From: an uncultured Alphaproteobacteria bacterium
GTDB lineage: Bacteria; Pseudomonadota; Alphaproteobacteria; RF32; CAG-239
DNA: 64,000 nt
Direction: 5' to 3'
NCBI GenBank assembly: GCA_944393715.1
Contig: CALYBB010000038.1
Span: forward strand, 15,325-79,324
The notes under the pieces: model-generated
Databases searched by the model: none
Told to the model about the DNA's origin: nothing
The model's input: the letters and a program-made list of their open reading frames with translations, nothing else
Made by a program: the position numbers and the translations under genes
Part shown: in pieces, positions 48,594-52,023 of the stretch
How positions within the stretch are numbered: position 1 is the stretch's first letter
Layout: each line of letters begins with the position of its first letter

Positions 48594-49469
48594 ATGGAAA
48601 AAGTCTTGGCACTGAACGGTATCGATTTTTCGCCGGAAATAAATATGGCTCGATACTTGCAAAAAATAAGGAATTACCCAATTTTATCTCAAGAAGAAGA
48701 ATATGATTTGGCGGTTAAATATCAGCAGACCAAAGACAGGAAAATTGCCCAAATTTTGGTAACTTCTCATTTGAGGCTGGTGGTTAAGGTTGTATCTAAA
48801 TACCGCGGTTATGGCTTGTCGATGGCGGAGATGATATCGGAAGGAAATATCGGTTTGTTGTCTGCGGTTGAAAAGTTTGAGCCGGAAAAAGGTTTTCGTT
48901 TTTCGACATATGCATTGTGGTGGATTAAGGCATCGGTGCAAAAGTATATTCTCAATTCGTGGTCGTTGGTTAAAATAGGAACAACCGCCGCACAGAAAAA
49001 GCTATTTTTTAATTTGCGCAAAATAAAAAATAAACTTAATTTAAGCGATGATCGAGAGTTGTCGCCGGCAATTTTAGAAAAAATAGCGGAAACTTTGGAT
49101 GTCAGTGTTCAAGAGGTTACGGATATGAACACTCGTTTGAAAGCTCATGACGGTTCTCTTAACAGCATTATTGATTCATCAAGCGACAGCGGTTCGGAAT
49201 GGATGGATTTTATTGCAGATACAAAGCCAAATCAGGAGGAAGTTTTGGCTTATGGCGAAACAATGAAATACCGCAGAGGTTTGTTTGCCAAAGCTTTAAA
49301 TGTGCTTAACAAGCGCGAAAAAGATATTTTGTTTAAGCGGCGGTTGTCGGAAAAAATTTTTACACTAGATGATTTGAGCAAAACATACGGCATATCTAAA
49401 GAACGAGTGCGCCAAATTGAACTAAATTCAATTAAAAAAATCCGTAAGGCAATCGATGTCGAGGCTTAG
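48594..49469 (+). CDS. rpoH: RNA polymerase sigma-32 factor
   Basis: RpoH box QKKLFFNLRK and sigma70 regions 2 and 4. Confidence 0.9.
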   Translation: MEKVLALNGIDFSPEINMARYLQKIRNYPILSQEEEYDLAVKYQQTKDRKIAQILVTSHLRLVVKVVSKYRGYGLSMAEMISEGNIGLLSAVEKFEPEKGFRFSTYALWWIKASVQKYILNSWSLVKIGTTAAQKKLFFNLRKIKNKLNLSDDRELSPAILEKIAETLDVSVQEVTDMNTRLKAHDGSLNSIIDSSSDSGSEWMDFIADTKPNQEEVLAYGETMKYRRGLFAKALNVLNKREKDILFKRRLSEKIFTLDDLSKTYGISKERVRQIELNSIKKIRKAIDVEA

Positions 49470-49945
49470 TTTTCTTCTGGTAAAATGTTTGCCCAGTTTT
49501 CAGATAGTTTTTCTAGCTTTGTGTTGATAACTTTCAGCCGATGTTGTGCGGAATTTTTGAAAATGAATACGAATAAGTCGGGGAGGACATAGTACAACAA
49601 AACTCCCAAAGCTGCGGCGCCGAGCATGATAATAATGTTGAAAATATTATCACGAATCGAGAATTCGATACCGGAGTTAAACTGGACGAAAATATTGTTT
49701 AAACGAATCATAATGCCGGCAATATTAAAGCAGCCAACGGTTGTGATTTTGTTGATGTTTTTGGTGTCGGTTATGACGATGGTCAAAGTCGGCAGAAGGC
49801 CTATGAGCAGAACAACAACCGCAGGCAAAACAGTGAAAATAACAAGGATGAGCGCCAGAAAAATTAAAATTTTCTGGATGAAATTGAAGTTGTTTTTGCC
49901 GGTTCTATTTTTTTTTGCCGGTGCTTTGATAATCGGTTTTGTCAT
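49466..49945 (-). CDS. Hypothetical polytopic membrane protein
   Basis: 159 aa with 3-4 TM helices. 4-bp overlap with the upstream kinase-like gene. Its 3' end overlaps the rpoH stop. Confidence 0.4.
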   Translation of the reverse strand: MTKPIIKAPAKKNRTGKNNFNFIQKILIFLALILVIFTVLPAVVVLLIGLLPTLTIVITDTKNINKITTVGCFNIAGIMIRLNNIFVQFNSGIEFSIRDNIFNIIIMLGAAALGVLLYYVLPDLFVFIFKNSAQHRLKVINTKLEKLSENWANILPEEN

Positions 49946-52023
49946 TTAATCACCCAATAAATTAAGCTGAAAATAAATGTGCTCAGCATGGTTAAAACGG
50001 CCAGAATCGATGAAAATCTGAAGGCAAGATCACGAGCCTCGTCTTCAATTTTTGAATCGCCGGATAAGATTTTGGCTTTTTCCGTTAGTAAAAAATTGGC
50101 GGTTTTCAGCGCTTCGGAATATTCTGACCTGTCGCGATTACGCGCTTCGTCGTTTTCGAGAATATTGACGATGTCGATTAATTTTCCGTTTTTTGAAATT
50201 TGCAAAAGCTCTTGCTCAAGATATTTTTGATATTTGATGTTGTGATAACTTTGGATCAACGGTTTGGATGTCTTTACGAGCCACTGGGTTAAATTGACTA
50301 GTTGTGCGGGGCCGTTTTTGTTTTGGATATTGGCATATAAACGGATAATGGCACCAATTTTAAGGGCATCTTGATTGGCGTTGATATCTATTAAGATGCC
50401 GTCAATTTTTTTGCCCATTTTGCAGCGGAGAAAAGCGATGATGTTTTTATCAAAAGGTTTGGTTTCGCTGTCGCCGTTAAAATGATCCAGAGCCTTAAGA
50501 AGGCGGGAAGGGCTGTTGACGAGGTTTTTGCCAACCAGAGGGCTTATGCAGGGCAAATCTTCGTCAAAATCGTACATTATGCGATCAAAACCGTAGCCAT
50601 AGTCGTTGCGCGCCAGATAAAGCTTGAATTCTCCGGCATTACTCGGGGCGCGTTGAGATGGCTGTTCTTGGTACCAAAGTTTTATTATGTCCGAGACAAC
50701 AAGTGTTTGCAAAGGGGTCAGAGCTAAGTTATTTTTCTTATAATAAAAGATTGTTTTGGCTATCCCGCCGGGAAACAGGTAAAAGTCGCCGCATCTCAGA
50801 GGGAGAGAATAATCCAAATAGATACATATTCTGGCTAGGAGCAGACTTTTATCAAGATTTTCTTTTTCGGACAAAATCTGTTTTTCTATTTTTGTATAAA
50901 GTTTTTCGTTTTCCAAACCGGTTTTTATCCACTCAAGCAATTTTCCGCTTTGGATAACTTCTATGCCAAAATCGGTGTTGGTAAGCATGTTGAGAGCAAC
51001 ACTTTTGCGCGTGTAGCATTTTTCGCCGTTTATGGTCAAGGCCCTAGTGGAACGTTCAAGAGCGTCGCTGTTCATAAATCCTGTTGTTTTGCCATCGTAG
51101 TAGTTGTACAGGCGGTTGTAGTCGCAACGGTTTTCGGGGTTGTCTTCCAGCATAGAGCGCAGAACGACGGCTATTTGATTGCTGATTTTTCTGTTCTCGG
51201 AGAGAAAAACAAAAGAAGAATTTTTTAATTTTTGTTTGATGAGTTCTCCGGCAGAAAGTTCTGATGTTATTTCATGGTTGAAAAACAATCCAAGCATAAC
51301 CACGCCGGCAGAATAAATATCCTGTTCGTGTGTGCCGTTGCCACGAGCAAATGGTTTGCAGAGCATATTTTCGATTGTTTCGTAAACAAGAGGTTGGTGA
51401 TATCCAGGAAAATCAGCCAGACAATCTCCTAAAACAAGTTCGTTGCGTGAGGGATCTTTATACCAAATGTTGTTCAGACGAATAGCGCGGTGATTCAGGC
51501 CAAAAGTTTTGAGAACGTCACAGGCGGATAAAAGCGACAGAGACAGTGATTTGAACTTTTCAAAGGATATTTTTTCTGCATCGTCGTCGAAAACATCGGC
51601 TCGAGGGCCAGAGGGTTTGTTGTAAATCAGGGCGATGGTTTCGCGGCCATCTTTGGTTGTAATGAATCCATATTCTACCAGTTTTAGAATATTTGGGACA
51701 TCTATGGATTTCATATAGGAAAGATATGATAGGCGGGGCGCATTTTTCTCTCCACAAACCAAAGCAAACAGACTGCGCTGAGGATTAATATTGTCCTTGG
51801 TTTCATAGGCAAGAGCGCCGTTGCTGTCATATTGAGGCAGAGGCTGGTTGAAGCGAATCTCGTAGCGTTCTTTTAGCAGAAAATTGTCAATGTCTGCCGG
51901 TTCTGGGTTTTCAGCGGAAACTTCTGTTTGTGGTTCGTTGCTCATTTCGCAATCTTTCTGTTTGTTTATTAAATATACATTTTTTAGCAAAATATTCTTA
52001 ATAAAAAGCAAATTTTTTATCAT
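49942..52023 (-). CDS. Eukaryotic-like Ser/Thr protein-kinase-like protein (probable pseudokinase) with a C-terminal TM anchor
   Basis: HRAIRLNN sits at the catalytic-loop position of HRDLKPEN, with Ala replacing Asp. LGDCLADF is DFG-like. DIYSAGVVMLGLF matches subdomain IX. C-terminal TM helix. The real start may be the internal Met at MSNEPQ. Confidence 0.5.
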   Translation of the reverse strand: MIKNLLFIKNILLKNVYLINKQKDCEMSNEPQTEVSAENPEPADIDNFLLKERYEIRFNQPLPQYDSNGALAYETKDNINPQRSLFALVCGEKNAPRLSYLSYMKSIDVPNILKLVEYGFITTKDGRETIALIYNKPSGPRADVFDDDAEKISFEKFKSLSLSLLSACDVLKTFGLNHRAIRLNNIWYKDPSRNELVLGDCLADFPGYHQPLVYETIENMLCKPFARGNGTHEQDIYSAGVVMLGLFFNHEITSELSAGELIKQKLKNSSFVFLSENRKISNQIAVVLRSMLEDNPENRCDYNRLYNYYDGKTTGFMNSDALERSTRALTINGEKCYTRKSVALNMLTNTDFGIEVIQSGKLLEWIKTGLENEKLYTKIEKQILSEKENLDKSLLLARICIYLDYSLPLRCGDFYLFPGGIAKTIFYYKKNNLALTPLQTLVVSDIIKLWYQEQPSQRAPSNAGEFKLYLARNDYGYGFDRIMYDFDEDLPCISPLVGKNLVNSPSRLLKALDHFNGDSETKPFDKNIIAFLRCKMGKKIDGILIDINANQDALKIGAIIRLYANIQNKNGPAQLVNLTQWLVKTSKPLIQSYHNIKYQKYLEQELLQISKNGKLIDIVNILENDEARNRDRSEYSEALKTANFLLTEKAKILSGDSKIEDEARDLAFRFSSILAVLTMLSTFIFSLIYWVIK

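Follow-up and report, generated by a model that had tools for sequence, protein, structure and literature searches.

A kinase-fold protein and a small membrane protein encoded side by side

The DNA analyzed here is a stretch of 64,000 nucleotides (the window) from an uncultured Alphaproteobacteria bacterium, contig CALYBB010000038.1 of assembly GCA_944393715.1, positions 15,325 to 79,324 of the forward strand. We focus on two adjacent genes on the minus strand, the first encoding a protein that combines a kinase fold with degraded catalytic motifs and a C-terminal membrane helix, the second encoding a small polytopic membrane protein. An earlier note made from the sequence had described them as a eukaryotic-like pseudokinase with a membrane companion; this overall reading is essentially right, and we found neither a lack of kinase-fold similarity nor an ordinary set of catalytic residues. 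The two genes lie at the following positions, all given in window coordinates:

49942..52023, minus strand: longest open reading frame (ORF) of the pseudokinase gene, 693 aa (ORF list)
49942..51945, minus strand: pseudokinase gene from its probable start at Met27 to the stop, 667 aa (homologue starts; Shine-Dalgarno-like AGAAAG)
49466..49945, minus strand: partner gene, 159-aa polytopic membrane protein (ORF list, hydropathy)

The 693-aa frame reported in the earlier note is present, but the real product is probably shorter. Because homologues begin at the equivalent of Met27 and a Shine-Dalgarno-like element (AGAAAG) precedes this codon, Met27 at position 51945 is probably the true start, giving a product of 667 aa rather than 693; the first 26 codons of the long frame (51946-52023, minus strand) are probably leader rather than coding sequence. 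We number pseudokinase residues from Met27 unless stated otherwise. The ATG of the small gene overlaps the pseudokinase stop codon by 4 bp, read as ATGA, an arrangement that couples its translation to that of the pseudokinase gene, and hydrophobic segments are evident in its product, as the note had described.

The protein is predicted to have a complete kinase fold

The first of the domains defined in the pseudokinase is the following:

51076..51885, minus strand: kinase-fold (pseudokinase) domain, residues 21-290 (AlphaFold, Foldseek, profile search)

The AlphaFold model of the protein (predicted local distance difference test score, pLDDT, 87; predicted template-modeling score, pTM, 0.80) contains a complete bilobal Hanks-type fold, with an N-lobe sheet and its αC helix followed by a helical C-lobe. 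In Foldseek comparisons, the domain (approximately residues 21-290) aligns with WNK1 (5w7t) at a template-modeling (TM) score of 0.75 and a root-mean-square deviation of 3.4 Å, and the protein aligns with PknB at TM scores of 0.69-0.72; about 2000 kinase chains in the PDB match the model at E ~1e-9. Profile comparison agrees with structure comparison on this similarity. A profile built from 54 homologues matches PDB kinases, the best being CDPK at E 2.5e-9. As a single sequence, the protein scores 25.4 bits against Pfam Pkinase (PF00069; E 1.1e-5), mostly over the C-lobe and below the gathering score of 31.7 bits, and a Pkinase match at E≤0.01 is found in 45 of 61 diverse family members, the best at 2.7e-11.

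The catalytic residues are replaced across the family

The kinase motifs can be placed on the model and on the alignments as follows:

51817..51843, minus strand: degenerate Gly-rich loop PLPQYDSNG, between β1 and β2 (model secondary structure)
51754..51768, minus strand: β3 strand FALVC, with Ala61 as the VAIK Ala and Val63 at the Lys position (strand E59-63 of the model)
51706..51738, minus strand: αC helix PRLSYLSYMKS, with Tyr74 at the Glu position (profile alignment to CDPK)
51469..51492, minus strand: catalytic loop HRAIRLNN (H152 to N159), with Asp replaced by Ala, Lys replaced by Arg and Asn kept (HMMER alignments)
51421..51429, minus strand: DFG equivalent G173-D174-C175, with the acidic residue kept and Phe replaced by Cys (family counts)
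51304..51321, minus strand: subdomain IX motif DIYSAG

HMMER aligns HRAIRLNN with HRDLKPEN, so that Ala takes the place of the catalytic Asp, and DIYSAGVVM with DIWSSGVIM of CDPK2; both correspondences had been proposed in the earlier note, as had GDC as the DFG-like motif, whose acidic residue is kept family-wide. The note had been unable to locate a Gly-rich loop or the VAIK Lys. Both sites can now be placed, at the PLPQYDSNG loop and at Val63, and both are degenerate. In the AlphaFold secondary structure, β1, the loop and β2 read YEIRFNQ-PLPQYDSNG-ALAYETKD and β3 reads LFALV; the loop does not follow the GxGxxG pattern, and its family consensus is PLPxLDxxG, with the Pro conserved.

We counted residues at these positions over 409 aligned family members, the sample for all family counts that follow. 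The VAIK Lys position holds Val in 180, Ile in 177 and Leu in 38 (one of these three in 395). The position of the αC Glu is variable and hydrophobic, with Glu in 29 members, and Arg71 of the same helix is found in 397. At the HRD Asp position there is Ala in 269, Ser in 58, Gly in 35 and Asn in 19 (381 together), and Asp in 13, all of them with Val in place of the VAIK Lys. These 13 comprise P0371 (Skermanella aerolata, locus L088) and 12 others, with Glu at the DFG position; this subclade may represent the ancestral state of the catalytic loop. At the DFG equivalent, G173 occurs in 406 members and C175 in 337. The residues that build the fold are near-invariant, including D209 of subdomain IX (408/409), R273 of subdomain XI (399/409), A46 and A61, and in the APE region E189/E192 are essentially invariant. 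The activation segment is short but present and carries no conserved Ser or Thr.

Two further possibilities were considered and set aside. A Lys relocated as in WNK is not found, the β2 position equivalent to WNK K233 being Ala or Gly and K25 occurring in only 172 of the members. Nor do C64 and C175 behave as a redox or metal pair: they co-occur in 271 members and each is lost independently (66 and 40 cases), with no strong coupling.

Purifying selection extends over the whole length of the protein. Because the substitutions hold across the 409 members, we read the protein as an ancient, conserved pseudokinase and not as a recently decayed gene; with neither Asp at the HRD position nor Lys at the VAIK position in profile and structure alignments, it is not an ordinary Hanks kinase either. 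The combination of kinase fold and conserved loss of the catalytic triad under purifying selection is what we take to define a pseudokinase, and from it the lack of activity is predicted. The earlier reading as a pseudokinase or scaffold is thus supported, and it extends to the whole family.

A second domain and a tail anchor follow the kinase fold

The remainder of the protein is divided as follows:

50152..51054, minus strand: C-terminal domain, residues 298-598, a β-hairpin and then about 17 helices (separate AlphaFold model)
50542..50598, minus strand: most conserved motif of the C-terminal domain, GYGFDRIMYDFDEDLPCIS (conservation over 409 sequences)
50026..50151, minus strand: charged helical stalk, residues 599-640 (model helices H599-627 and H631-666)
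49945..50025, minus strand: tail-anchor transmembrane helix AFRFSSILAVLTMLSTFIFSLIYWVIK (hydropathy)

Modeled alone, the C-terminal domain reaches a pLDDT of 89. Foldseek found no match for it in the PDB (best E 0.66, TM score <0.2) or in BFVD, Pfam detected nothing there, whether in the window protein or in any of 61 diverse members, and NCBIfam detected nothing in that of the window protein; the predicted fold is therefore one that these comparisons do not recognize. W339, P382, G452, R455, Y458, C466, S468, D499, Q541 and D605 are each conserved in at least 99% of the members, Cys466 in 408 of 409, and they are the strictest invariants of the whole protein. Mean conservation is 0.46 in the C-terminal domain and 0.50 in the kinase-like domain.

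The protein ends in a hydrophobic helix, residues 669-693 of the 693-aa ORF, with a Kyte-Doolittle mean of 2.17 over 19 residues. A hydrophobic tail with at most about 6 residues after the helix is present in 404 of 408 members. The terminal transmembrane helix described in the earlier note is thus a feature of the family, and its position is that of a tail anchor.

A small membrane protein accompanies the pseudokinase throughout the family

The hydrophobic stretches of the small protein cover residues 18-62 and 99-130 and its termini are rich in Lys and Arg, consistent with a topology of about four membrane spans with both ends in the cytoplasm. Its homology reaches the distant Rhodospirillales and persists between clades whose pseudokinases share about 25% identity. 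Fourteen residues are invariant across all clades: P41, G49, P52, G71, N74, G77, M107, A111, G114, Y118, P122, R136, L147 and W151. The invariant Pro, Gly and Asn residues lie in the membrane helices, and R136, L147 and W151 lie in a C-terminal amphipathic helix. Searches of Pfam, NCBIfam, PADLOC and PDB profiles gave no match for this protein.

We surveyed the gene neighborhood by tblastn over 89 loci, 83 from the gut clade and 6 of Rhodospirillales type (L084-L089). The small gene lies directly downstream of the pseudokinase gene on the same strand in 85 of the 89. The four exceptions are contig ends or the diverged loci L084 and L085, where a 163-aa ORF sits in its place and aligns with it. 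The co-transcription of the two genes proposed in the earlier note is supported by this pairing, which is conserved family-wide.

The family spans gut MAGs and cultivable Rhodospirillales

A word-indexed search returned 214 homologues, and the best 120 of the 214 are at least 48% identical and come from uncultured Alphaproteobacteria. An exhaustive profile search against 50%-identity representatives gave 2779 at E≤1e-3 and 960 at E≤1e-30, the latter nearly all full length (660-790 aa). Scanning genomes, we found 80 loci, all in metagenome-assembled genomes (MAGs) from gut or rumen, including CAG:495, Candidatus Scatocola and MAGs labeled Azospirillaceae. A profile of distant members extended the family to Paramagnetospirillum kuznetsovii, Skermanella aerolata, Thalassobaculum fulvum, Azospirillum sp. 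and Rhodospirillales MAGs, in which the proteins are annotated as 'hypothetical', 'protein kinase domain-containing' or 'serine/threonine protein kinase'. A literature search on pseudokinases in Alphaproteobacteria, on Rhodospirillales genera and on tail-anchored proteins yielded no paper on this pseudokinase family.

The conserved unit is the gene pair

In the window, the pair is flanked by the following features:

48594..49469, plus strand: rpoH (sigma-32), convergent neighbor (NCBIfam RpoH, 342 bits)
52090..53163, plus strand: PAS-like and degenerate GGDEF protein, divergent neighbor (Pfam GGDEF, 42.9 bits)
51946..52089, no strand assigned: divergent intergenic and leader region between the pseudokinase and GGDEF-like genes, including the 26 probably untranslated codons

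The intergenic region contains a promoter-like pair, TTAAGA-18-TATATT, at 52001..51972 (minus strand), inside the 26-codon extension, a weak match that does not exceed chance, and a second promoter-like hexamer pair in the opposite direction at 52031..52060 (plus strand), also not above chance expectation. Scans of the locus for promoters and terminators gave nothing beyond chance level, and Rfam gave no RNA element there.

Gene order differs between the two groups of loci. In the gut clade, it is GGDEF-like gene (divergent), pseudokinase, small protein, rpoH (convergent), rluD and DUF6476. In the distant relatives, it is (serA)-hisZ-purA, pseudokinase and small protein, followed by rpoH-rluD in L084, L088 and L089; purA thus lies upstream of the pseudokinase gene outside the gut clade, and in L086 unrelated genes follow the small protein and there is no rpoH. 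The GGDEF-like gene lies upstream in 80 of the 83 gut-clade loci, whereas all six Rhodospirillales-type loci lack it there. Its three exceptions, L019, L049 and L075, have at most about 120 bp of sequence upstream of the pseudokinase gene, and it is kept although the next flanking gene varies (Hda in L001, Bax1-I in L003). The divergent degenerate GGDEF gene pointed out in the earlier note is indeed present, with LKYNF aligned where the diguanylate cyclase 5m3c has GGDEF, but it is a conserved neighbor in the gut clade only.

A convergent rpoH is found at 67 of the 89 loci, including Skermanella and two Rhodospirillales MAG loci. The overlap of stop codons that the note had reported is present, the TAG of rpoH and the TAA of the small gene sharing 4 bp at 49466..49469 in convergent orientation, but it is specific to this genome; in others there is a gap of 50-100 bp or no rpoH. 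In L015, L017, L019, L036 and L040, all of the gut/rumen clade, rluD follows the small gene directly, rpoH having been lost or moved. From these comparisons, it is the two-gene pair that is conserved as a unit, to which the gut clade has added the GGDEF gene, possibly with a function; rpoH is context and not demonstrably part of the module.

In the six Rhodospirillales-type loci, a gap of 58-132 bp separates hisZ-purA from the pseudokinase gene downstream, which has the same orientation; in those genomes, it may therefore share a transcript with purine and histidine genes. We found no defense or mobile-element context: the neighbors are purA, hisZ, rpoH, rluD and dnaB. The position among housekeeping genes is conserved and the gene is retained in gut-associated MAGs, and this suggests a core envelope or physiological function rather than an accessory or defense function.

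Downstream of rluD in the window (44157-47388, minus strand) are three genes, encoding DUF6476 (91 aa) and proteins of 292 aa and 661 aa; neither Pfam nor NCBIfam matches the latter two. Synteny of rluD with DUF6476 and the 292-aa gene is seen in 67 of the 89 loci, and the 661-aa gene is present in 44; the three genes form a second conserved block. Further away, at 54679-55604 (minus strand), two slightly overlapping tandem paralogues of 168 aa and 141 aa, of the CxxCxxCC type of YcgN/UPF0260, sit between a YgjP-like gene and dnaB, and L003 has the same pair. The region 32200-38800 is about 6.5 kb with small ORFs only (<230 aa), a low GC content of 0.34-0.40 and an unusually strong GC skew of up to 0.33; neither tandem repeats nor Rfam matches were found in it. 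Across the window, Rfam identified the signal recognition particle RNA and three tRNA genes (12707-12802, plus strand; 3638-3843, plus strand; 57695-57768, plus strand) and no other RNA family.

Comparison with known pseudokinases and membrane kinases

Seven families of bacterial pseudokinases have been described: ActPs1-3, GLW, CP1, DYD and DLHK (bioRxiv 10.1101/2025.01.12.632604; PMC12599244). Like them, our family keeps a bacterial kinase fold with degraded catalytic motifs. Set against their published motif descriptions, its own motif set (FAL[VI]C, HRAIRxxN and G[DE]C) fits none of the seven. GLW comes nearest, being proteobacterial with a C-terminal transmembrane segment, as here in alphaproteobacterial hosts with the tail anchor in 404 of 408 members; however, GLW proteins have GLW for HRD, LLLL/W for VAIK and no DFG Asp, where our family has HRA, FAL[VI]C and G-[DE]-C. 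The others differ as well: the actinobacterial families ActPs1-3 have no DFG Asp, DYD is a family of Actinobacteria and Firmicutes in which Arg takes the place of the Lys, and CP1 is cytosolic and carries COG3899. DLHK has no transmembrane segments and keeps the HRD Asp according to PMC12599244, although the atlas preprint conflicts on this point and has DLHK without it. What our family has beyond all seven is a C-terminal domain of about 300 aa with an unrecognized fold and an obligate small membrane partner.

The membrane-associated pseudokinases offer closer parallels. EssB/YukC of the type VII secretion system (T7SS; PDB 6Z0F) also places a pseudokinase, degraded in all its catalytic motifs, in the cytoplasm on a single membrane helix and acts as a scaffold for a complex (PMC12599244). 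EssB, however, has an extracellular domain after the helix and belongs to T7SS operons of Firmicutes, whereas here a terminal tail anchor leaves at most about 6 residues after the helix, and the gene sits in an alphaproteobacterial genome with no secretion genes in its neighborhood. The pseudokinase domain of MviN/MurJ in Mycobacterium tuberculosis (ActPs3; PDB 3UQC) is likewise membrane-associated and non-catalytic and recruits a partner, but it is fused to the 14-transmembrane MurJ flippase, lacks an activation loop and has aromatic residues filling its ATP site; our protein retains a short activation segment, and its membrane partner is a small protein encoded by a gene of its own. YabT of Bacillus subtilis (PMC6333020) shares the cytoplasmic kinase fold and single C-terminal transmembrane helix and lacks an extracellular sensor, but it is active and DNA-activated, whereas our protein has lost the catalytic residues and has an additional large domain.

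The best fold and profile similarities are to WNK1/WNK3 and to CDPK/CaMK, and WNK also lacks the β3 Lys. WNK, however, relocates the Lys to β2 and keeps the HRD Asp, while here there is no relocated Lys and the Asp is lost; the resemblance to WNK and CDPK is one of fold, not of family membership. By analogy, the protein would be most like the membrane scaffolding pseudokinases EssB/YukC and the MviN domain in function and like YabT in topology.

Similarity to anti-phage defense kinases (MADS MAD6, MkoA and PD-T4-6) was considered and rejected, being local to the kinase domain, with no partner genes nearby. NCBIfam MAD6 scores 21.8 bits against a cutoff of 460, and the PADLOC matches are confined to the kinase domain, MkoA matching at E 4.7e-10 over residues 82-313 of a model with 1112 positions.

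A non-catalytic scaffold or adaptor at the inner membrane is favored

We think it reasonably likely that the protein is a non-catalytic membrane scaffold or allosteric adaptor, facing the cytoplasm, tail-anchored, in complex with the small protein and binding a partner or ligand. The C-terminal tail anchor would hold the pseudokinase at the inner membrane with its domains in the cytoplasm. The kinase-fold domain keeps the skeleton of a kinase: the spine alanines and the HRD His are retained, as are the subdomain-IX Asp and the pair formed by the APE-like Glu with Arg of subdomain XI. In the membrane, the tail-anchor helix and the conserved cytoplasmic C-terminal helix of the partner would join the two proteins in a complex with the ~160-aa partner, and the kinase-like surface together with the highly conserved α-helical C-terminal domain would bind a further partner or a ligand. 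Phosphate transfer is most likely absent, because the β3 Lys, the αC Glu, the catalytic Asp and the Gly-rich loop are all gone.

Several observations sit uneasily with a passive scaffold. The HRD His (H152) is conserved in 391 of the 409 members, which is unexpected if the pocket has no function, as are Arg in place of the catalytic-loop Lys (R156, 390/409), the catalytic-loop Asn (N159, 407/409) and the acidic residue of the DFG-like motif (position 174, Asp in 270 and Glu in 134, 404/409). Since the two canonical metal ligands are retained, binding of a nucleotide or cation, or even atypical catalysis, stays conceivable. The invariant polar residues of the C-terminal domain, Cys466 among them, look more like an active or ligand-binding site than like a passive scaffold, and the evidence for an interaction with the small protein is gene order.

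A possible but not favored alternative is that the C-terminal domain is the functional core, a new enzyme or small-molecule sensor, which the pseudokinase would regulate or dock and for which the small protein would provide a membrane partner, a substrate channel or a signal input. This domain holds the strictest invariants of the protein, its model is confident, and its fold has no relatives in the PDB or BFVD. However, the invariants could equally mark a protein-protein interface or a structural core, no cofactor-binding motif is recognizable, and the mean conservation of the domain is not above that of the kinase-like domain. This alternative is partly compatible with the scaffold interpretation.

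We regard as unlikely an atypical active enzyme that binds a nucleotide and a divalent cation through Asn159, Asp/Glu174, Arg156 and His152 and carries out non-canonical phosphotransfer or another reaction. Kinase folds are known to support other reactions, such as AMPylation (SelO) and glutamylation (SidJ). The near-invariance of N159, G173, D/E174, R156 and H152 over 409 sequences that share only ~25-35% identity speaks for such an enzyme, and the DYD and DLHK families lack the canonical Lys yet have been modeled with ATP (PMC12599244). Against it, Lys, αC Glu and Asp are missing together, a Pro-containing loop replaces the Gly-rich loop, the HRD Asp position tolerates Ala, Ser, Gly, Asn and Asp, which implies no catalytic constraint there, and no conserved Lys compensates for the loss (K25 being the candidate discussed above).

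In a bolder reading, to which we give little credence, the pair would be a new and widely conserved alphaproteobacterial membrane machine. Its pseudokinase would bind a nucleotide through the retained Asn, acidic residue and Arg and control a new catalytic or ligand-sensing domain of a fold not seen before that uses GxGxxRxxY...CxS...D...Q...D. The machine would serve a core physiological function, such as homeostasis of the envelope or under stress beside rpoH, and the family would be the eighth of the bacterial pseudokinase families.

It is improbable that the pair is a dedicated regulator of its neighbors, either sequestering and releasing RpoH or signaling through the degenerate GGDEF protein. 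The convergent rpoH does adjoin the pair in most loci, even in distant Skermanella, and the GGDEF-like gene is divergent from it in every gut-clade locus with enough upstream sequence. But rpoH is missing next to the pair in L086 and in several gut-clade loci such as L015, L017, L036 and L040, the convergent orientation means that there is no co-transcription with rpoH, the serA-hisZ-purA ... rpoH-rluD block resembles ancestral housekeeping synteny, and the GGDEF gene is missing at this position in all six Rhodospirillales-type loci.

That the protein is an ordinary active Hanks-type Ser/Thr kinase misread by the earlier note is scarcely credible and, at the level of sequence, already refuted: some homologues are annotated as serine/threonine protein kinases and 13 members have the HRD Asp, but HMMER and structure mapping show the HRD Asp exchanged for Ala and the VAIK Lys for Val, those 13 members have Val at the Lys position as well, and the window protein falls below the Pfam threshold.

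Significance

To our knowledge, the cataloging of bacterial pseudokinases is just beginning, and almost none has a known function. The family described here is ancient, comprises about 960 clusters at 50% identity and conserves its gene order, and its members occur both in cultivable Rhodospirillales (Skermanella, Thalassobaculum, Paramagnetospirillum and Azospirillum) and in uncultured Alphaproteobacteria from the guts of humans and ruminants. In tractable relatives, three features of the family offer handles for experiments: a metal-ligand pair retained alongside a lost triad, an invariant Cys in a C-terminal domain of unrecognized fold, and the small membrane protein as an obligate partner. 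If the module formed by the candidate scaffold and its partner is functionally important, it would represent a new type of membrane signaling or scaffolding device in alphaproteobacterial cell biology.

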